From Ruminococcus sp. (GTDB taxonomy: Bacteria; Bacillota; Clostridia; Oscillospirales; Ruminococcaceae), in NCBI GenBank assembly GCA_045128995.1, contig JBGVIW010000050.1:1211-65210 (forward strand): DNA of 64,000 bases, written 5' to 3'. The notes below the pieces were generated by a model, which was not told the DNA's origin, did not search any database, and saw only the letters and a list, made by a program, of their open reading frames with translations. Of the stretch, positions 353 through 8,071 are shown in pieces (the first letter of the stretch is position 1; every line of letters starts with the position of its first letter). The position numbers and the translations under genes are program-made.

Positions 353-538
353 TTAGACATATTCAATTTTCATTCTCTTGGACGGTGCATTTATGACCTT
401 AAAAATAAGCTCGTCAATACAATCCGTATATCTGCCTTGCTGTATGAGCTGATTTTTTAACTCTACAAGGCTATGTATTAAAAGTTTTCTTTCGTGGCTA
501 TCCAAATACAGATGATTGGTTTTATCTTTCATTGTCAC
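353..538 (-). CDS. Small conserved-type hypothetical protein of Clostridiales ICEs, upstream of parA
   Basis: 61-aa ORF with RBS AAGGAGG; protein-like composition. Confidence 0.65.
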   Translation of the reverse strand: MTMKDKTNHLYLDSHERKLLIHSLVELKNQLIQQGRYTDCIDELIFKVINAPSKRMKIEYV

Positions 539-848
539 AACCTCCTTGTACCTATATTATATAGTAGAGTAGAGATAAGCTCCAATGTGTAATAGGCTTG
601 TCCTATGCTACATTGGGGGAATAGCAGCGTATATATTGATTGTTCACTCATTGCCACGCTGTACCATAGTTGGATGTTCGGAAAATTCTACTTGATTATT
701 CTCGCCATACCTTAACACCTTATCCGAGGTTTTTAAGTTATGTACCCAGAAACCCCTAAAACGTGGGATTCTAAGAGATTTTGTGTTTTGGAACATTTCC
801 GATGCTTCTCTGGGTCTTATTTTTTGAAAATGGCGCATTTCATACAGG

Positions 849-1427
849 TTAGTCAAATTCAAATTTTATATGTAAAATTCCATCTAACCCCTGAAATGCT
901 GTTTCTAATGATTTTGCAAACTGCTTGTCGGTAACAGTTTTTTCCTTTTTAGCTTTAATATGTCCCATAAATTGTCTTGCTGCATTATGTATATCTTCTG
1001 TTTCGGTATATTTATTTCGATAATGAAAAGTACATATCACGCCATTTATGTCATAAGCTTTTTTTAATTGCTTAACATGAACTTGTAATACCTTCAACAG
1101 TTTTTTATCAAGAGCGTTACAATACCCATTTGAAAAATCAATTCCTTTATACAATTCTGTAGAATCATCAGTTCTTACCAATAATTCAAATTTCTCCCAA
1201 TCAATTAAAAAGTGTATTTTGCCGTGAGAACCTTCGTTAGAATCTTGAAACGAAATAGTTATTTCTTCAATTATGTCTCTTTCAATTATGCCCTTTGACA
1301 AATCATCTTCAATATGAACGCCACAAATCTCTGTTAGTTCATATAAAACTCCAGCTAAAACCCTCAGACGAAGTTGTGTGTTAATATCAACTTTTAATTT
1401 AGGTGGCAGTATCTCAATATTTACCAT
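849..1427 (-). CDS. Hypothetical protein (192 aa), last gene of the defence operon
   Basis: Start reassigned to ATG 1427 (MVNIEILPP), with GGTGA RBS and lying 2 nt after the stop of the AAA+ gene. No recognisable motif. Confidence 0.75.
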   Translation of the reverse strand: MVNIEILPPKLKVDINTQLRLRVLAGVLYELTEICGVHIEDDLSKGIIERDIIEEITISFQDSNEGSHGKIHFLIDWEKFELLVRTDDSTELYKGIDFSNGYCNALDKKLLKVLQVHVKQLKKAYDINGVICTFHYRNKYTETEDIHNAARQFMGHIKAKKEKTVTDKQFAKSLETAFQGLDGILHIKFEFD

Positions 1428-1428
1428 T

Positions 1429-2343
1429 TTAATCACCCAACATATGCCTTTCTTTTGCAAATTGAATCAATAATTCATAGTCTATTTTTTCTTTCCGTGT
1501 TTCTACATATCTTGATATGTTATTGATAATAGCATCATCGATAATATCTATATTATCAAAACAACTTGATACCATAGATTTACGATAATCATTTATCAAC
1601 TGTGAAAAATCCGCAATACTTGCTTTTGAGCATCTGGCAAAAAAGCGTTCAAACTCAACAGAACTACACTTCAAATAATCTCGAAAAATATTTTCGACAA
1701 TATACTTTTTTTCATCATAATTAGGTGACCATTCAAAACGGTCTGCTCTTCCAGCCCTAATAAGAGGACTATATACTTGTGAAAAATCATTTCCTGTAAG
1801 GATTATAGGAATTTTTTCCTCATATTTGTTCTGAGTAAGATTCATTAAATAACCCGTCAACAAAGATGAATTTATAGTTCTCTTTACATTATCATCAACA
1901 GAGGCATTACTTAAGTGAAAATCATCAACTATAATTGCAACTTTATCCCCTTGACTTCTCATGTCTATAGATTTTTTATATACAGATTCCATCACATCAA
2001 TGGCATCATGTTCATGAGAACCAGAAAGTTGTGATGCAGATATATATATTACAGTAATTCCATGCTGAATACACGAGGCTATTGATTGAGAGGTTTTTCC
2101 TTCACCTGCAGTGCCTTCAACAACTAAGAAAAGAGGTGGTAAATATTTATCATTGTTTTGAAGATAGATAGAGATAACATGTGTCAATATCGTCTTCTTA
2201 AATCTTTTTAATACATTTAGCGTACTATAAAATGCATCCCCATATTTAAAAATTTGATATTTATTTCCCGTTGATATATCAAATGTTTTATAGGCCTCTC
2301 TTAATGATTCAATATCATTAAGATTTCTATCCATAAATCCCAT
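1429..2343 (-). CDS. AAA+ ATPase resembling Rubisco activase (Rca)
   Basis: Walker A GTAGEGKT, Walker B AIIVDD, then TINSSLLTGYLMNL and PIILTGNDFSQVYSPLIRAGRADRFEWSP, which parallel Rca TVNNQMVNATLMNI and PIIVTGNDFSTLYAPLIRDGRMEKFYWAP. Confidence 0.8.
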   Translation of the reverse strand: MGFMDRNLNDIESLREAYKTFDISTGNKYQIFKYGDAFYSTLNVLKRFKKTILTHVISIYLQNNDKYLPPLFLVVEGTAGEGKTSQSIASCIQHGITVIYISASQLSGSHEHDAIDVMESVYKKSIDMRSQGDKVAIIVDDFHLSNASVDDNVKRTINSSLLTGYLMNLTQNKYEEKIPIILTGNDFSQVYSPLIRAGRADRFEWSPNYDEKKYIVENIFRDYLKCSSVEFERFFARCSKASIADFSQLINDYRKSMVSSCFDNIDIIDDAIINNISRYVETRKEKIDYELLIQFAKERHMLGD

Positions 2344-2618
2344 TACTCTACCTCCTTATCAATTACATTAATATCCTCTGATGAACGATTAGAAGCTAGA
2401 TAAGTTGCTATTGTAGAAAGATAATTAGGGTCTTTAATATCGATATTTTCAATATCGGCATTAGAGGGGATAAAAGGATTATCCCTGCGTTCTTCAGAAG
2501 CATCATACTTTTGTGGAAGCTTTTGCGTTTTGCTGGATTTCTCTTTTTTAAATAAACCAATTATTGCAACAATTATATCTTTGAAAAAACCTATAATTGC
2601 GATCCATATATTTTCCAT
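2343..2618 (-). CDS. Small protein (91 aa) with N-terminal hydrophobic/amphipathic helix
   Basis: AAGGAG RBS before ATG 2618; NIWIAIIGFFKDIIVAIIGLF followed by a basic patch; TAATG overlap with the AAA+ start. Confidence 0.7.
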   Translation of the reverse strand: MENIWIAIIGFFKDIIVAIIGLFKKEKSSKTQKLPQKYDASEERRDNPFIPSNADIENIDIKDPNYLSTIATYLASNRSSEDINVIDKEVE

Positions 2619-2644
2619 AAACTTCTCCTTGTTTAAGAATTTAA

Positions 2645-4570
2645 TTATATTAGAGCTTGACCGTTTCTCCAATTGCAACGAACATATTCTTCGAACTCTT
2701 CTTTACACTCTAAATTGTTCCCATCTACGTGGTCAACAACAATTATTTGAGGTACTATTCCTGTATCTTTGCCAATTGAGTTGATTTCATCAAAAATTGT
2801 CTTATACATTTTATTGACAGCCATCAAATCAGCTTGAGTTATTTCATTTTTATCATCCCCTTGTGGGAAATACACCTGACTTGGTTGGTCAAAAAACATA
2901 ACCAAAGGCATCGGTGAATTGTCCTGGGTTGCAAAAAAACGCAGGAAACTTAAAAACAGAGCAATATGGCAGGAAACCCAATTTGCACCACTTCCCATCT
3001 CGTATAGATGGATATTCTCATTGCTTTTCTGGTGCTGATAAATGTCAAAGCTACCGTCCGTTAAACCAAAATTCAAGTCAATCGGTCTATACTCTTCTTC
3101 AAAATCAAGCGTTAAAGAAAGACGATTCATATTGTTTGATAAAAAGCTCTCAGCTTTTGACATCTTCTTATCAACATCAAATCCTTTGATTTTTTCTTCG
3201 AGTCTGGCTATTTTTTCTTTAAGTTCTTCAATATCTCCATCAACCGTTTCAAATATACCAGAGCTACTCATTTCAGCATATAAAGCGATTCTCGCTTTTG
3301 CGTAATTTACTTTTTCTCTCTTTGAAACAAGAGCTTTTGATAAAATGAATTTTTCCTCAATTGTCTTTATCTGTCTCCAAACATCTCGTATTTTTTCATC
3401 AATCTTTGAGTGAGCTTCCTTGAGTTTTCTAACATCTTCAGAAAAATCAGCAGTGTATTTTTCGGTAATTCTTAATTCGTTATCTAACCATTCTGTAGCC
3501 TCAATGAGCTTTGAATCATTCTCGGCAATTTCTTTACATTCGTGACCGCAAAGAGGACAGGAATATTCGTCAGTTTCAATTTCAGCTATGCTTGTTTGTT
3601 GTTTCAAATTCTTCAACATTTGAGTGAAAGAACTGCCTGTATCAAAAGCATTATCTATATTTTTAATTTTTAATAAGATTTCTCGTTCTTCATTTCTGAG
3701 ATTTTCTAATACGGCATTTAATTCACTGTAACGTTCAGTTATTTTATTTTCACCAAAAAGTTGTGTGTCATCGAACTCTGGTAAATTAGAAGCTATCTTA
3801 AGCATTTTCTGTACTGAAATTTTTCCGTCAAAATCCTGTTCAAGCAATGCAAAATAATCCGTTAATAACGGCGAAAGATTTTCTTTAATATATGCAGTGC
3901 TTTTTTCATTAGCTTTCTGTTTTTTGTATTTTTGTTTCAATTGAGCTTTTAATGTATTTAATTGAATTAAGTCGCTATAATACTCTTGACTAATCATACC
4001 TGCAAAAACAGGAAATTGGTCTATCACATCTTTTCTTTTATAAAAATCTGAGAACCGATAGAATAACGCAAACTTACTTGCCATTAAGTTTTGATGTTGA
4101 AACAAGTAAGAAACCATGTTTCTTAATGACGCTTTTTTCCCTTGTTGGTCAGCATCGGTAGCCATATTTGTCACAAATAAACCTAATGCACATTCAATCT
4201 CATTTTTTACATCTTTATGTGGCAAAGCCGGTTTTTCTACAAAATAGCTTAGCTCCAAATTTTCAGGTTCAAAGCCCTTTGCTTCTTTAGAAAAATGCAT
4301 TTTGCCGCCATCATCCCAATTATAACGAGCGATAACATAGGTATTATCACCTATAGCCATTACAAGAGTATAAAGATACGAAAAGTCGGTTATTTTGCCT
4401 TTTGGTATTGTACAACGAGTACTGCACAAGCAATAATCAATTATCTCAACTAATGCACTTTTACCTGTTTTGGATTCGCCAGTGATTATATTTACTCCTT
4501 GCTCAAGTGGAACTACTCTTTTTTCGCCATTTTTATTAAATATAATAATAGCTTTTATATAACTTTTCAT
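2645..4570 (-). CDS. lmuB: Lamassu LmuB / ABC-three-component SMC-like ATPase (DUF3732 type)
   Basis: Walker A GESKTGKS, coiled coils with central CPLCG zinc hook, signature MGSGAN, Walker B FFDQPSQVYF, H-loop VVDH. Confidence 0.85.
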   Translation of the reverse strand: MKSYIKAIIIFNKNGEKRVVPLEQGVNIITGESKTGKSALVEIIDYCLCSTRCTIPKGKITDFSYLYTLVMAIGDNTYVIARYNWDDGGKMHFSKEAKGFEPENLELSYFVEKPALPHKDVKNEIECALGLFVTNMATDADQQGKKASLRNMVSYLFQHQNLMASKFALFYRFSDFYKRKDVIDQFPVFAGMISQEYYSDLIQLNTLKAQLKQKYKKQKANEKSTAYIKENLSPLLTDYFALLEQDFDGKISVQKMLKIASNLPEFDDTQLFGENKITERYSELNAVLENLRNEEREILLKIKNIDNAFDTGSSFTQMLKNLKQQTSIAEIETDEYSCPLCGHECKEIAENDSKLIEATEWLDNELRITEKYTADFSEDVRKLKEAHSKIDEKIRDVWRQIKTIEEKFILSKALVSKREKVNYAKARIALYAEMSSSGIFETVDGDIEELKEKIARLEEKIKGFDVDKKMSKAESFLSNNMNRLSLTLDFEEEYRPIDLNFGLTDGSFDIYQHQKSNENIHLYEMGSGANWVSCHIALFLSFLRFFATQDNSPMPLVMFFDQPSQVYFPQGDDKNEITQADLMAVNKMYKTIFDEINSIGKDTGIVPQIIVVDHVDGNNLECKEEFEEYVRCNWRNGQALI

Positions 4571-5055
4571 TTTGTATCAACTCCTAAAAAGAAAGATAAA
4601 TGGTCTTCGGTGGTTTTTGAAAACACAACTCCAAGGTAAAATGCACATTTAATCCAATCTTTGATAGCTCCCTCAAAATCTTTGTAATCAATTTTCTTGA
4701 TAAGGACAATCTTGTGATTGTTAAAGGCTATTTTTCCTTCGGAAGATAAAATAATAATTGCTTCTTTACAATATGGTTTAAGTGAATTATATCTGTCAAC
4801 ATAGCCAGATAACCTTGTTTTACCAGAAATCTTACTTTCATCAATAATTTGAGGGGACTGAAACAAAGTATCTATTCGACTTCTTCTATTTGCATTTACT
4901 AATTTTTCACGTGATTCAGCGTACAGTAAAATTGGAATTGCCATAAACGGCAATTTTATCTCACAAGGTTTTTCGTAACCAGAAAGAAAACTCTGCATTA
5001 GTAAAGAATAAAAATGAGGATTCATTGAAAGCTTTTTGATGTTATTTATGCTCAT
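4567..5055 (-). CDS. lmuC: Lamassu LmuC / ABC-3C middle component
   Basis: ~160 aa between effector and SMC ATPase; NPHFYSLL..SFLSGY..LPFMAIPILL pattern; ATGA overlap with lmuB. Confidence 0.75.
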   Translation of the reverse strand: MSINNIKKLSMNPHFYSLLMQSFLSGYEKPCEIKLPFMAIPILLYAESREKLVNANRRSRIDTLFQSPQIIDESKISGKTRLSGYVDRYNSLKPYCKEAIIILSSEGKIAFNNHKIVLIKKIDYKDFEGAIKDWIKCAFYLGVVFSKTTEDHLSFFLGVDTK

Positions 5056-6196
5056 TCTTTTCTTCACCTACTTTCCATTTGAAATCTGTTTCATCCACTA
5101 TGTTATGTATAACCCCTCGCTGGAAGTATCCTTGATTACGAATAATAGAGCCAAAATCATTCGCATCCCAACTCATTACACCATTGTAAAGCTGCTTTGA
5201 AATTTTTATTTGTTCTTCCTCGGTTGCTCCTTCAGCATTCAAATCGCTATTCGCTTTACTATATTGCATCTTTGCAGACAAATCTTCCATATATGATTCA
5301 AGACTTTCTAAATACATAAGGTTGTCCCTAAAATATTTGGCAACGGTTAAATCCGCTTTCCAATAATCTGACATTGCATTTGGAATCATTTTGTCATACT
5401 TAATCTCACGAATAGACGCAACAAATTTTTTCTGTTCGAGTGTAGTAATTTTGTCTTTAGGAACAACAGCTTTTGCGTACTCATTTGGAAGTGGTGCAGT
5501 TCCTTTTGTTCCATATGCTGTTGATTGTATCTGTAGAATTTCATCAAATGCTGACTTGGTCACCTCCCATTTATGCGGGGGTTCCTTAACTTTTATTAGT
5601 ATTTCGCCAAGCAAAGCACCTATATATCCGTCTCTATTTTCGGAAGGAATGTGACCTACATATTTAGAAAATTCATTAGATATACCGTCTATTGAAGTTT
5701 TGGCAGCTTCAATCGTAAATTTATCTAATATTTTCAAAAGGCGACTTTCGTCATAAGAGTCACCGAAAATTCTATTATATTGATTCCTGAATGTTTCTTC
5801 AGTTTTCTTAGAGATAGCTCCTATGTCTTTTAAGCGTTTTAATTTCTCAGTCTTTTTTATATTATTCCAACTATGAAACGGAGAATCACTTTGAATTGTA
5901 GCTGTAGTACTGAGTATATAATTGGAAAAGTTTTTTACACGCTCATAGTCTACATACCAATTTGCAAGTGTCTTCCAAAAATCTATATCTCTGTCCGAAA
6001 TAGATGTATTTCCAAAATGATGTTTTACTTCTCTCTGAAAGCGACCACCCACATCATTTATAATGCTCACATCACCATTTGTCTCAATTTGCAGAGTATC
6101 GCTATCGTTCAATTCAAAGCAATCTCTTAAAGCTATTAGATACTGGTATATATCACCAGCTTTTTGCAATGTTGCATCATTAACTGCTCTTGTCAC
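5042..6196 (-). CDS. lmuA: Lamassu LmuA effector, probably Cap4-like dsDNA endonuclease plus ABC-3C C-terminal domain
   Basis: N-terminal AGDIYQY..IETNGDV..QREVKHH resembles the Cap4/PD-(D/E)xK nuclease pattern; C-terminal RGVIHNIVDE..FKW; sits directly upstream of lmuC-lmuB. Confidence 0.7.
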   Translation of the reverse strand: MTRAVNDATLQKAGDIYQYLIALRDCFELNDSDTLQIETNGDVSIINDVGGRFQREVKHHFGNTSISDRDIDFWKTLANWYVDYERVKNFSNYILSTTATIQSDSPFHSWNNIKKTEKLKRLKDIGAISKKTEETFRNQYNRIFGDSYDESRLLKILDKFTIEAAKTSIDGISNEFSKYVGHIPSENRDGYIGALLGEILIKVKEPPHKWEVTKSAFDEILQIQSTAYGTKGTAPLPNEYAKAVVPKDKITTLEQKKFVASIREIKYDKMIPNAMSDYWKADLTVAKYFRDNLMYLESLESYMEDLSAKMQYSKANSDLNAEGATEEEQIKISKQLYNGVMSWDANDFGSIIRNQGYFQRGVIHNIVDETDFKWKVGEEKNEHK

Positions 6197-7112
6197 GGTC
6201 AGTACCTCCCTTCAGATTTGACCATTTTCTCGCATTGCTTTTCCAGATATTTTGCCACTCATCTTCATTCATAATCGCATCAAACACAGGCTCAAGAAAA
6301 GTCTGGATTTCTGCAATGACGAATGGAAACTCAAGCGTGTTATCTTTTATGGTTTTCAAAAAGAATTTCCAACGTTTCTGCATATCTTCATCATCGGCAA
6401 GTGCAACAACACGCTTAAAACTATCTCTGTCATAGGGAGTACCACGCCGCTGTAAGGTTTCAAATATAGCTGCCTGCAATTTTGCACCCTCAAAATCGAA
6501 TGTCCTTGAAAGATAATAGATGTCATAAAAATCTTTCATTCTGCCTGTCAACTCAAAGCGTTGTAGTATGGCATCAAACTTCTCGGCAATGGTGCTTTCA
6601 AGGGAATAAGTTTTGATTACAGGTGCTTCAAAGTCTGGAAGCTGAGTATTGATTGTGCGTTCTTCGGCACGAGGGACTATAATATCGCCCACACCTATAT
6701 CAACATTGAACGGCACACGCACATTTTTTATTTGAGCAATAATCTGTGTGCTGATACCGTGATATTTTCTTTGAGGAGAAATTTCCTCAAAGCCTTTTGC
6801 TCGCATTTCTATATAATCGTTACCTGTCGGTGTGTCGATAATTTTACAAATCAACTCTTTTACATCATCTATTGAATTAGAGTATCCACGGAGCAGGAAA
6901 TCGACATCAATTGTTGCTCTACTTTCAAAATTAGTTAATGTATAAATGAACAATCCACCTTTGAGTATTAGCGTATCCTCACACCCAGATTTTGATAGCT
7001 TTCTCAAAAATTCTTCCTGCACAAAAAGCTGCAAACATTGCTGGTAGCTGATACCAGAAGCTTTTGCTTTATTTCTCAGCTTTGCTAGAACGGAAGCTGC
7101 AATATCTGCCAT
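6180..7112 (-). CDS. abiEii: AbiEii/AbiGii nucleotidyltransferase toxin (type IV TA)
   Basis: LILKGG, RATIDVDF and RMKDFYD motifs; ATG 7112 overlaps the abiEi stop (TAATG). Confidence 0.9.
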   Translation of the reverse strand: MADIAASVLAKLRNKAKASGISYQQCLQLFVQEEFLRKLSKSGCEDTLILKGGLFIYTLTNFESRATIDVDFLLRGYSNSIDDVKELICKIIDTPTGNDYIEMRAKGFEEISPQRKYHGISTQIIAQIKNVRVPFNVDIGVGDIIVPRAEERTINTQLPDFEAPVIKTYSLESTIAEKFDAILQRFELTGRMKDFYDIYYLSRTFDFEGAKLQAAIFETLQRRGTPYDRDSFKRVVALADDEDMQKRWKFFLKTIKDNTLEFPFVIAEIQTFLEPVFDAIMNEDEWQNIWKSNARKWSNLKGGTDRDKSS

Positions 7113-7720
7113 TACAACCACACTCCAATCAATTCTCTAACCTTTTTCTGCACACGCATTTTTTTTGCATACATCATAAGGTTTGGTATATTCTTTTTCG
7201 GGTCATTAACATACCCTTGTATTGCTTTATTGAAAATTTCTTTATCCATTTTACTCATATTTTTCAGAACATCACAAATTGTTCGGTCACGGTCATAAAT
7301 TCGCACTTTTGTAAAATCTATCTCACCTGTTGTTTCACCAAGCGTAACCAAATCTGACTCAAGGCGATATGCTTTAATGAAGGGGTACTCTATATTTGTT
7401 CGTAATTTTGAAACATTCCTGTCTATGGCAAAATTCCACTCAGCGGGGTTTCTATCGCTGTATTCATAATAGAATAGAGCAGTTTCCATACAAAGAACAG
7501 CATCGGGAAACAAACTATTAATGATAACTATTTCTTTGGTTTCGCAGTTTTCAATCCAGTGATAATAACCTCGTCTTATTCTTTCAATAAAACCCTCATC
7601 TAAAAGTTGTTTAATGTCTGCATAGTATAGCTTAGCTTCAAGAAGCTCGGCAGTAGTCATTACATAGTGATGCCGATTGAATAGCTTTCTCACATTTTTA
7701 ATATCGTTTTCACGAAGCAT
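7112..7720 (-). CDS. abiEi: AbiEi antitoxin / transcriptional regulator
   Basis: N-terminal wHTH (IERIRRGYY), LCMETALFYY and YDRDRTICDVL motifs; adjacent to abiEii. Confidence 0.9.
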   Translation of the reverse strand: MLRENDIKNVRKLFNRHHYVMTTAELLEAKLYYADIKQLLDEGFIERIRRGYYHWIENCETKEIVIINSLFPDAVLCMETALFYYEYSDRNPAEWNFAIDRNVSKLRTNIEYPFIKAYRLESDLVTLGETTGEIDFTKVRIYDRDRTICDVLKNMSKMDKEIFNKAIQGYVNDPKKNIPNLMMYAKKMRVQKKVRELIGVWL

Positions 7721-7776
7721 TTGTCCACCTCTATTTAATTGCCTCAAATTTGTTTATTGGTTGGGTACTTTACTAT

Positions 7777-7851
7777 ATTATATGCGATTTGTATATAGAA
7801 AGTCAATAGTAAACTGCCCACTTAAAAAGCAAACAGTGGTCAGTTTACTAT
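7777..7851 (-). promoter_or_regulatory. abiE operon promoter with adjacent inverted repeat (candidate AbiEi operator)
   Basis: TTGACT (7801-7806) N18 TATAAT (7777-7782) on the minus strand; perfect 11-bp inverted repeat ATAGTAAACTG (7806-7816) / CAGTTTACTAT (7841-7851). Confidence 0.6.
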
Positions 7852-7889
7852 AAGGGAAATAGGCAATATTTTTGTTGTTTCTTTGGGGA

Positions 7890-7929
7890 TAAAAAATAAG
7901 CGTACCACTATTTCTAATGATACGCTTAT
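7890..7929 (-). terminator. Intrinsic terminator downstream of ppdK, supplied by the element
   Basis: ATAAGCGTA/TACGCTTAT stem followed by a T run on the minus strand. Confidence 0.6.
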
Positions 7930-7941
7930 CATATTTAACTG

Positions 7942-8071
7942 TTAATCAAGGTCTATGAATACCCTTACAGTGGTATCTCTCCACTGATTTTTCCTTACAT
8001 ACTGTCCGTTAGCCTTTCGATAGGCTGCTGCCTGCTCGAAACTAAGCGGCAATTCAAAGGAAAGAGAACTC
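7942..8071 (-). pseudogene. Start-less ~42-codon coding remnant, possibly the C-terminus of a large serine recombinase split off at the att site
   Basis: SSLSFELPLSFEQAAAYRKANGQYVRKNQWRDTTVRVFIDLD* begins right after the ppdK stop with no RBS or start. Resemblance to recombinase C-termini is from memory only. Confidence 0.4.

Follow-up and report, generated by a model that had tools for sequence, protein, structure and literature searches.

A three-gene cassette pairing a Rubisco activase-clade ATPase with a predicted HORMA-fold protein beside a Lamassu locus of Ruminococcus sp.

The 64,000 bp stretch of Ruminococcus sp. DNA analyzed here (contig JBGVIW010000050.1; hereafter the window) carries, next to a Lamassu defense locus, a cassette of three co-oriented, translationally coupled genes (Table 1). 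Their products are a 91-amino acid (aa) protein that begins with a hydrophobic helix, a 304-aa AAA+ ATPase from the clade of Rubisco activase (Rca), and a 192-aa protein with a predicted HORMA fold. The cassette looks like a variant of the HORMA-plus-AAA+ switch for which no description was found. We slightly favor the view that it is an autonomous HORMA switch, which is reset by an Rca-clade unfoldase, has the small membrane protein as its output, and probably serves as a conflict or anti-phage system. Which component binds which, the direction and the trigger of the switch, and its action against phages are points that we infer only.

The resemblance of the ATPase to Rca is far beyond chance. 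In a phmmer search against all PDB sequences, the only close matches were Rca proteins (Nostoc 6z1d, E = 5.5e-24; Arabidopsis 4w5w, 1.4e-19; tobacco 3t15, 7.5e-19), and the first non-Rca match, a proteasome Rpt subunit, followed at E = 0.18. When the AlphaFold2 (AF2) model of the protein (predicted local distance difference test, pLDDT, 81.5, with the N-terminal 45 residues at low confidence) was submitted to Foldseek, Rca chains took ranks 1–7 and 9 (E 2e-16 to 2e-11, template modeling (TM) score 0.56–0.77), then came the proteasome, p97, and FIGL1, and no TRIP13 was found among the top 50 matches. The family libraries returned the generic AAA model of Pfam (E = 2.8e-9) and merely weak, far-sub-threshold matches to generic AAA+ families in NCBIfam and PHROG, while no PADLOC model matched at E ≤ 0.1. 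The close homologues of the ATPase make up just 32 clusters among 5.8 billion proteins; a full HMMER scan for the family as a whole yielded, at E ≤ 1e-3, 635 representatives with lengths of mostly 270–310 aa.

The original prediction had described an Rca-like ATPase with the Walker A sequence GTAGEGKT, a Walker B lacking Glu (IIVDD), and the blocks TINSSLLTGYLMNL and PIILTGNDFSQVYSPLIRAGRADRFEWSP, all of which are present in the sequence, and the likeness to Rca was upheld by the searches above and by the trees described below. Across 24 homologues, G77, G80, E81, G82, K83, and T84 of Walker A, D140 and D141 of Walker B (a stretch aligning with ...FINDLD of Rca), the sensor-1 Asn, and R196, G198, and R199 of the arginine-finger region are invariant. 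Judged by these conserved catalytic positions, the ATPase site is intact.

The position of Rca relative to this family was examined in two trees, one inferred with FastTree from 200 sequences, the other with IQ-TREE (LG+C20+F+G4) from 97 sequences and rooted with FtsH and two Trip13 proteins of CBASS, the antiphage signaling system based on cyclic oligonucleotides. Both united the ATPase family including Rca in one clade (98% in IQ-TREE, where it stood apart from FtsH and Trip13), and both showed Rca as a tight clade (98%). In the IQ-TREE phylogeny, Rca fell inside a 97%-supported group, the other members of which are ATPases from actinomycetes and Anaerolineae with HORMA neighbors, along with P0147/L096 (numbers with L denote loci collected in the searches); the ATPase of L096, among the closest relatives of Rca, is HORMA-adjacent as well. 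The approximately unbiased (AU) test on 53 sequences (LG+G4) did not reject a placement of Rca as the sister of all other members (p-AU 0.68), and the root is insecure. It is safe to say that the HORMA-linked ATPases are, of the relatives recovered, the ones closest to Rca, and that Rca is nested within them or sister to them; no more than this is claimed. The earlier suggestion that the module may bear on the origin of Rca agrees with this grouping.

The window ATPase is at the same time distinct from Rca. Its AAA+ core is homologous to that of green-type Rca (plant Rca and the cyanobacterial Rca-like protein of Nostoc PCC 7120, PDB 6z1d/6z1f), with 24–28% identity over ~210–280 residues, and the blocks named in the original prediction are among those shared. 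The protein is ~26% identical to Rca, and its place in the tree is in another subclade, one of Clostridia with 95% support. Identity to the Rca fragments of Nostoc or Arabidopsis is bimodal in the family, being at least 65% in 58 cyanobacterial/plant-type sequences and at most 49% in all others; every cyanobacterial match belonged to the first group and is true Rca. By this measure, the window ATPase falls outside the sequence cluster of Rca orthologues. The model of the Rca helical lid, PF21228, did not match it at E ≤ 0.1; two HORMA-linked relatives scored above the Pfam threshold of this model (L096, 57.7 bits; L036, 33.3 bits). With its 304 aa and an alignment that begins at residue 5 of Nostoc Rca, the protein leaves no space for a C-terminal SSUL domain. 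Finally, the conserved partner is here a HORMA-like protein and not Rubisco. The lack of a Rubisco gene, pointed out before for the window, extends to the genome: the Rubisco large subunit (PF00016) was not found in the 90.8%-complete assembly, with control genomes responding to the same search. A Rubisco-related function was rejected, as the genome is without RbcL.

The 192-aa protein had been listed as unknown, which holds insofar as no model of Pfam, PADLOC, NCBIfam, or PHROG covers either this or the 91-aa protein, but a predicted HORMA fold had been missed. The AF2 model built from a 16-sequence alignment had a pLDDT of 85.6 and a predicted TM-score (pTM) of 0.85, and in the Foldseek search against the PDB all of the 50 best matches were HORMA proteins, headed by Rev7/MAD2L2 (best E = 1.4e-4, probability 1.0) and including Mad2 and the CBASS HORMA proteins 6u7b and 6p8u. 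The best match in BFVD, a viral library, was the HORMA domain of Atg13 (E 0.028). We consider a HORMA fold likely for this protein. Several observations weigh against it: the call depends on a single predicted model, the TM-scores to HORMA structures were modest (0.35–0.50), the Pfam HORMA and bacHORMA families gave no match at E ≤ 1 with any of 21 diverse members, a profile search of the PDB with the HORMA-like family found nothing, and hhalign against two bacHORMA_1 sequences was not significant (probability 0.4%). Since the sequence-level searches were negative, the HORMA call is kept at the level of the fold. The modest TM-scores may come from a mismatch between HORMA native states, of which the hit list itself contains evidence for more than one in both Mad2 and Rev7 (PDB 1s2h; PMC10082759).

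The same negative sequence searches, modest TM-scores, and small alignment could be taken to mean that HORMA is a false structural analogy, the 192-aa protein being an adaptor of some other fold and the ATPase acting on another substrate, for example, the small protein or an unlinked host protein. We consider this very improbable, given that the 50 best PDB matches, with probabilities close to 1.0, all come from a single fold family, an independent library also has a HORMA protein as its best match, the confidence of the model (pTM) is high, and the pattern of the N-terminal tail is common to bacHORMA_1. The HORMA prediction, in turn, provides the ATPase with a likely substrate and ties the module to the TRIP13/HORMA paradigm.

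This N-terminal tail is a candidate handle for the pore of the ATPase. Within the close family, L7, P8, and P9 are conserved residues, and in the model the tail is predicted with lower confidence and has no secondary structure assigned to it. A T-x-T-x-T ladder, followed by “AR” and then helix A, stands in this place in the HORMA-like proteins of actinomycetes, Anaerolineae, and L096, and the same Thr ladder with “AR” is found in the CBASS bacHORMA_1 consensus (SSYTYTESTTFTITHARHIAAK). The Thr-ladder tail may represent a shared handle for AAA+ pores. Alternating-Thr starts are exemplified by ARTATYTATYAR (L085, L088, L089, L093, L044, L056, L036, L038, and L096); bona fide CBASS bacHORMA_1 proteins also begin with alternating Thr (SSYTYTESTTFTITHAR; L097:1483-2007).

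The three genes, as had been anticipated, travel together. Their order, that is, a small protein (90–111 aa), the ATPase, and a protein of 190–196 aa, is kept in 13 Clostridia loci after removal of redundancy: the window (its island recurs as L101) and L102, L004, L006, L007, L009, L014, L017, L018, L021, L024, L025, and L104. An iterated search over 76 loci from named genomes further revealed a HORMA-like gene directly downstream of the ATPase gene in Sulfitobacter, in two Anaerolineae, and in ten actinomycete loci (Microtetraspora, Micromonospora, Streptomyces, Thermoactinospora, Nonomuraea, and Actinomadura). Wherever both genes were found outside cyanobacteria, they were adjacent, in Bacillota, Actinomycetota, Chloroflexota, and Pseudomonadota alike, and none of the cyanobacterial loci had a HORMA-like gene. 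The core of the cassette is the ATPase/HORMA-like pair. A point against the proposed switch is that relatives of the ATPase, close ones among them, exist also without such a partner, no HORMA-like gene having been found near those of L043, L083, L087, L001-3, and L105. The close ones, at ~50% identity, stand alone, with neither the small-protein gene nor a HORMA-like gene; the one in L001-L003 (L001:3340-4242) lies between ddl/murF and spoIIID, and the other (L105:2742-3656) is beside GGGtGRT and TM2 genes.

Pairing of a HORMA protein with a dedicated AAA+ motor that resets it is a key regulatory principle of eukaryotes, acting in the spindle checkpoint, meiosis, and translesion synthesis. To our knowledge, bacteria were known to have such a pairing only as Trip13/HORMA in type III CBASS, whose Cap7 (HORMA) and Cap6 (Trip13/Pch2-like AAA+) were reportedly described by Ye and colleagues in 2020 (bioRxiv 10.1101/694695), for example, from E. 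coli MS115-1 and P. aeruginosa. The cassette resembles type III CBASS in that a HORMA gene stands beside the gene of a dedicated ~300-aa AAA+ protein in a compact operon on accessory DNA, and the CBASS HORMA proteins have a Thr-rich N-terminal tail before helix A, just as the distant cassette members do. In CBASS, binding of the closure motif is reversed by the unfoldase, and by analogy the same logic would be expected here. The differences are no less clear. The CBASS ATPase belongs to the Trip13 clade (Trip13 of L097 and L098 grouped with FtsH outside the family) whereas that of the cassette is of the Rca clade; the cassette HORMA-like protein matches neither bacHORMA_1 nor bacHORMA_2 in Pfam; a small membrane-helix protein takes the third place; and the CD-NTase and the cyclic-nucleotide effector, which type III CBASS needs, are both missing from the cassette operon. 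The genome likewise has no CD-NTase/SMODS gene (PF18144) and no cyclic-nucleotide effector, and a CBASS acting in trans was rejected, there being no SMODS gene.

The eukaryotic TRIP13/Pch2 systems with Mad2, Rev7, HORMADs, and p31comet are linked to the cassette through Mad2 and Rev7, which matched the 192-aa protein best in structure, but their ATPase is of another clade, no adaptor protein is evident here, and the cassette lies on bacterial accessory DNA. They set the paradigm in which an AAA+ motor opens closed HORMA by pulling on the N-terminus (eLife 2015;4:e07367). A HORMA protein linked to an Rca-like ATPase was not found in the searched literature: bacterial HORMA proteins appear only together with Trip13 and nucleotide signaling in Tromer et al., 2019 (PMC6601020) and in Kaur et al., 2020 (PMC7159879), and only under type III CBASS in a 2026 review. 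PADLOC-DB v2.0.0 likewise had no match at E ≤ 0.1 for any of the three proteins. In both the family libraries and the literature searched, the architecture was therefore as undescribed as the original prediction had supposed. If the pairing operates as proposed, HORMA-like proteins have gained an AAA+ partner from a second, unrelated lineage, and one that works without a nucleotide-signaling enzyme, which would widen the scope of HORMA switch control.

The product of the first gene had been called a membrane-anchored type of protein, and its N-terminus indeed contains a candidate membrane helix, the best 19-residue window having a mean Kyte–Doolittle hydropathy of 2.32. In all seven members of the close family, the helix has a hydropathy of 1.5–2.6 with 3–6 Lys/Arg among the next 12 residues. 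It carries 2–4 charged residues in some members, thus it may be amphipathic rather than membrane-spanning, which speaks against the proposed role. The C-terminal motif, NPF.P ... Y-L-x-x-I-A-T-Y-L-x-x-x-R-S-x-x-D-I-x-V in the seven members, lies in residues 47–86, which we infer to be a candidate site for binding the HORMA protein (as a closure motif) or the ATPase. In every close trio locus, this position is taken by a homologue of the gene (hmmsearch E 1e-24 to 1e-35). Across the wider family, the gene upstream of the ATPase encodes 90 to ~290 aa, belongs to no Pfam family, and usually begins with an N-terminal hydrophobic helix; in the distant loci, these upstream proteins had no informative Pfam match. 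The first gene of L025 in Lachnospiraceae (L025:574-1419) specifies a 282-aa protein with the same N-terminal helix, two repeats of an immunoglobulin-like segment, and a weak match to DUF6941 (E 1.5e-4), and as it differs from the others, the slot of the first gene is regarded as variable. Ahead of the ATPase gene of L096 (L096:170-862) lies a gene for a 230-aa protein, which has no Pfam match and resembles the palm of a nucleotide cyclase/minimal polymerase (VVVLHIDLARHSDW ... WAGDGGFFA). If this resemblance is real, L096 would be a CBASS-like, nucleotide-signaling variant of the cassette.

Considering the parts together, the following mechanism can be outlined by analogy. The Rca-clade ATPase would be a hexameric unfoldase that grips the conserved N-terminal tail of the HORMA-fold protein, in the way that TRIP13 threads the tails of Mad2 and bacterial HORMA proteins and Rca threads the N-terminus of RbcL. 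Pulling on the tail would convert the HORMA protein from the partner-bound “closed” to the “open” state. The 91-aa protein, with its N-terminal helix in the membrane, would be the output, and its cytoplasmic C-terminal motif, or else a foreign peptide, would serve as the closure-motif ligand. A trigger such as a phage peptide might stabilize closed HORMA, which would then assemble or activate the membrane protein, leading to membrane damage and abortive infection, while in uninfected cells the ATPase would continually disassemble the complex. A more far-reaching version, in which the cassette is an undescribed, CD-NTase-independent HORMA immune or conflict system whose Rca-clade unfoldase resets the HORMA sensor of a membrane-disrupting effector, and in which Rca descends from HORMA-remodeling ATPases with the N-terminal tail of RbcL having taken the place of the HORMA tail, is offered tentatively and is rather doubtful as a whole. 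On the side of Rca, the gain would be concrete non-photosynthetic relatives with a plausible ancestral substrate, by which a tail-pulling origin becomes testable.

The neighborhoods bear on the question of defense. Recognized defense genes are frequent neighbors, being present within 6 kb in 5 of the 13 non-redundant Clostridia loci: Lamassu and AbiE in the window, an LmuA-like gene in L004, Gabija in L009 (GajA 6.5e-194, GajB 3.2e-129; a prophage block of lysis and recombinase genes adjoins it), a PDC-S35 TIR protein (3.6e-80) in L018, and a TIR protein in L104. Mobile-element neighbors comprised ParA/ParB in the window, IS66, IS21 accompanied by a MobA relaxase, and prophage serine recombinases. 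A defense function is opposed by several results. The share of defense-adjacent loci is suggestive and not decisive; the neighbors in Actinomycetota, Chloroflexota, and Sulfitobacter are ordinary housekeeping genes without a recurring partner; and the family was not found by tblastn in 50,697 INPHARED phage records or 72,556 PLSDB plasmid records, nor by a pattern scan of IMG/VR. For a role in conflict or defense as such, the balance is consequently close to even, tipping at most a little in its favor. Should the cassette prove to be a defense system, it would be a compact one of three genes with a simple membrane effector, missing from the current catalogues.

The housekeeping neighborhoods and the absence from phage and plasmid collections would also suit a cellular switch outside defense, acting through the small membrane protein in a membrane/envelope or developmental process such as sporulation or hyphal differentiation. 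The placement of two trio loci at the ends of gene clusters for surface polysaccharides of the cell (L013:1-9693 and L102:2-781, with glycosyltransferases and an epimerase-like gene) would also agree with such a switch, as would the HORMA-less ATPase relative adjoining spoIIID. Nevertheless, we judge it unlikely, since the distribution is extremely patchy (among 301 genomes of the same family, a single one has the HORMA-like gene, and the three other species of the genus lack it), the GC content of the island is foreign to the genome, the Clostridia loci are flanked by mobile-element and defense genes, and no functional partner is conserved across the neighborhoods. A metagenome scan with the HORMA-like alignment retrieved two loci, both of them copies of the window island. 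The cassette is rare and horizontally acquired.

Tight coupling of the genes, a first product that is small and of a membrane-active type, and the location on or beside mobile elements would likewise be expected of a toxin–antitoxin-like addiction module that stabilizes mobile elements, with the small protein as toxin, the HORMA protein sequestering it, and the ATPase controlling turnover. No PLSDB plasmid carries the cassette, however, and three components including an ATP-driven remodeler are unusual for simple addiction, which makes this explanation quite unlikely; it also overlaps with abortive-infection defense, from which it is hard to tell apart by sequence alone. The reading that we slightly favor thus remains that of a HORMA switch with a probable conflict function.

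The cassette had further been considered as a possible accessory of Lamassu, and this option did not hold up. The 91-aa gene, on the strand that also carries lmuB, has its ATG 26 nt past the lmuB stop and an AAGGAG ribosome-binding site ahead of it; no terminator-like site was found between lmuB and the trio. L004 adds a second trio locus with an LmuA-like gene (E 8e-71), 5.4 kb away. Such an arrangement could indicate that the trio is co-transcribed with lmuACB and tunes or extends Lamassu. Against this, Lamassu is not nearby in 11 of the 13 non-redundant trio loci, the window and L004 being the other two, and the trio of L102, whose ATPase is 87% identical to that of the window, follows a gene unrelated to lmuB. 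The trio shares no component with Lamassu (LmuA/LmuC/LmuB; ABC-3C), of which it is a physical neighbor with the same orientation and probably a common transcript.

The separate divergence of the trio was seen in L101, which is the window island from another sample and aligns with window positions 7823 to 5 before different flanks begin. DNA identity between the two copies is 84–86% for AbiEi, AbiEii, LmuA, LmuC, and LmuB, as opposed to 95.3% for the small protein gene, 96.5% for the ATPase gene, and 95.2% for the HORMA-like gene; to the left of the trio, it is 78% for a 61-aa open reading frame (ORF) and 87% for ParA. Owing to this difference in identity, the Lamassu/AbiE block and the trio are taken to have separate histories. 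The synonymous divergence (dS) is 0.12–0.16 in the trio versus 0.74–0.86 in lmuA and lmuC, and the ratio of nonsynonymous to synonymous divergence (dN/dS) of 0.12–0.15 in the trio (0.116 for the 91-aa gene and 0.148 for the 192-aa gene) indicates purifying selection on all three genes. The dS step at the lmuB/trio border together with the low dN/dS thus points to a cassette that has been exchanged separately and is under purifying selection. An in-frame stop divides lmuB of L101 into ORFs of 302 and 324 aa (L101:6858-8783) next to the intact trio; this may reflect decay of Lamassu or a sequencing error. With all of this, a Lamassu accessory has very little probability left.

The remaining details of the layout were re-read from the sequence. 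The stop of the 91-aa gene and the start of the ATPase gene overlap in TAATG, and one nucleotide separates the stop of the ATPase gene from the ATG of the 192-aa gene; these features, the ORFs, and the distance from lmuB had all been given exactly beforehand. AbiEi, AbiEii, LmuA, LmuC, LmuB, and the trio form a row of eight co-directional genes (849-7747, minus strand), overlapping or near-abutting, with tight gene ends, for example, at 7121/7112, 6196/6180, 5067/5042, and 4570/4567. The sole strong promoter-like site is upstream of AbiEi (7806-7777, 11/12 matches); a weak one lies upstream of the 91-aa gene (2671-2644), and promoter-like sites are not more frequent in the region than in shuffled sequence. 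The eight genes from AbiEi through the trio may be expressed as one long transcript.

Table 1. Positions of the cassette genes, their sequence elements, and the neighboring defense genes in the window
Feature	Position	Strand	Basis or remarks
Gene 1, 91-aa protein	2343..2618	-	ORF; N-terminal hydrophobic helix, Lys-rich stretch, acidic linker, conserved C-terminal motif
Candidate membrane helix, residues 4-23 (IWIAIIGFFKDIIVAIIGLF), then KKEKSSK	2550..2609	-	Kyte–Doolittle
Conserved C-terminal region, residues 47-86	2361..2480	-	Alignment of 7 family members
Gene 2, 304-aa AAA+ ATPase of the Rubisco activase clade	1429..2343	-	ORF; PDB phmmer, Foldseek, Pfam AAA, tree
Walker A, GTAGEGKT, residues 77-84	2092..2115	-	Sequence reading
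Walker B, AIIVDD (Asp-Asp, no Glu), residues 136-141	1921..1938	-	Sequence reading
Arginine-finger region, R196-A-G-R199 in PLIRAGRADRF	1747..1758	-	Alignment with Rca PLIRDGRMEKF
Gene 3, 192-aa protein, predicted HORMA fold	849..1427	-	ORF; AF2 and Foldseek
HORMA-like N-terminal tail MVNIEILPPKLKVD, ahead of helix A	1386..1427	-	Candidate handle for the ATPase pore
lmuB (context, outside the module)	4570-2645	-	PADLOC LmuB 8.7e-104; Pfam DUF3732
lmuC (context, outside the module)	5067-4567	-	PADLOC LmuC 1.4e-12; Pfam MC3
lmuA (context, outside the module)	6196-5042	-	PADLOC LmuA 2.2e-44; Pfam CTD7
AbiEii (context)	7121-6180	-	PADLOC 2e-89; Pfam AbiEii
AbiEi (context)	7747-7112	-	PADLOC 8.7e-70; Pfam AbiEi_4

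The GC content is 0.30–0.38 at ~500–8000 and ~0.50 from ~8000 onward, where a pyruvate phosphate dikinase gene is located, the genome average being 0.46. Homology to L101 ends at window position 7823, where the GC content passes from ~0.33 to 0.50, and the flank of L101 beyond the island (L101:1-3602) is different DNA with a GC content of 0.55. The segment of ~7823-8000 in the window is an insertion boundary. On the other side, left of the trio, the 61-aa ORF is followed by parA and parB fragments, and as the island runs on into these, it may be the cargo of an integrative element. Two ParB-like N-terminal fragments (KIELTAYDDL.QTDESREEAKLSKIRDIPIS), near-duplicates of each other, adjoin parA at the start of the contig (1-860), immediately to the left of the window, suggesting that the partition genes were rearranged at the contig end.

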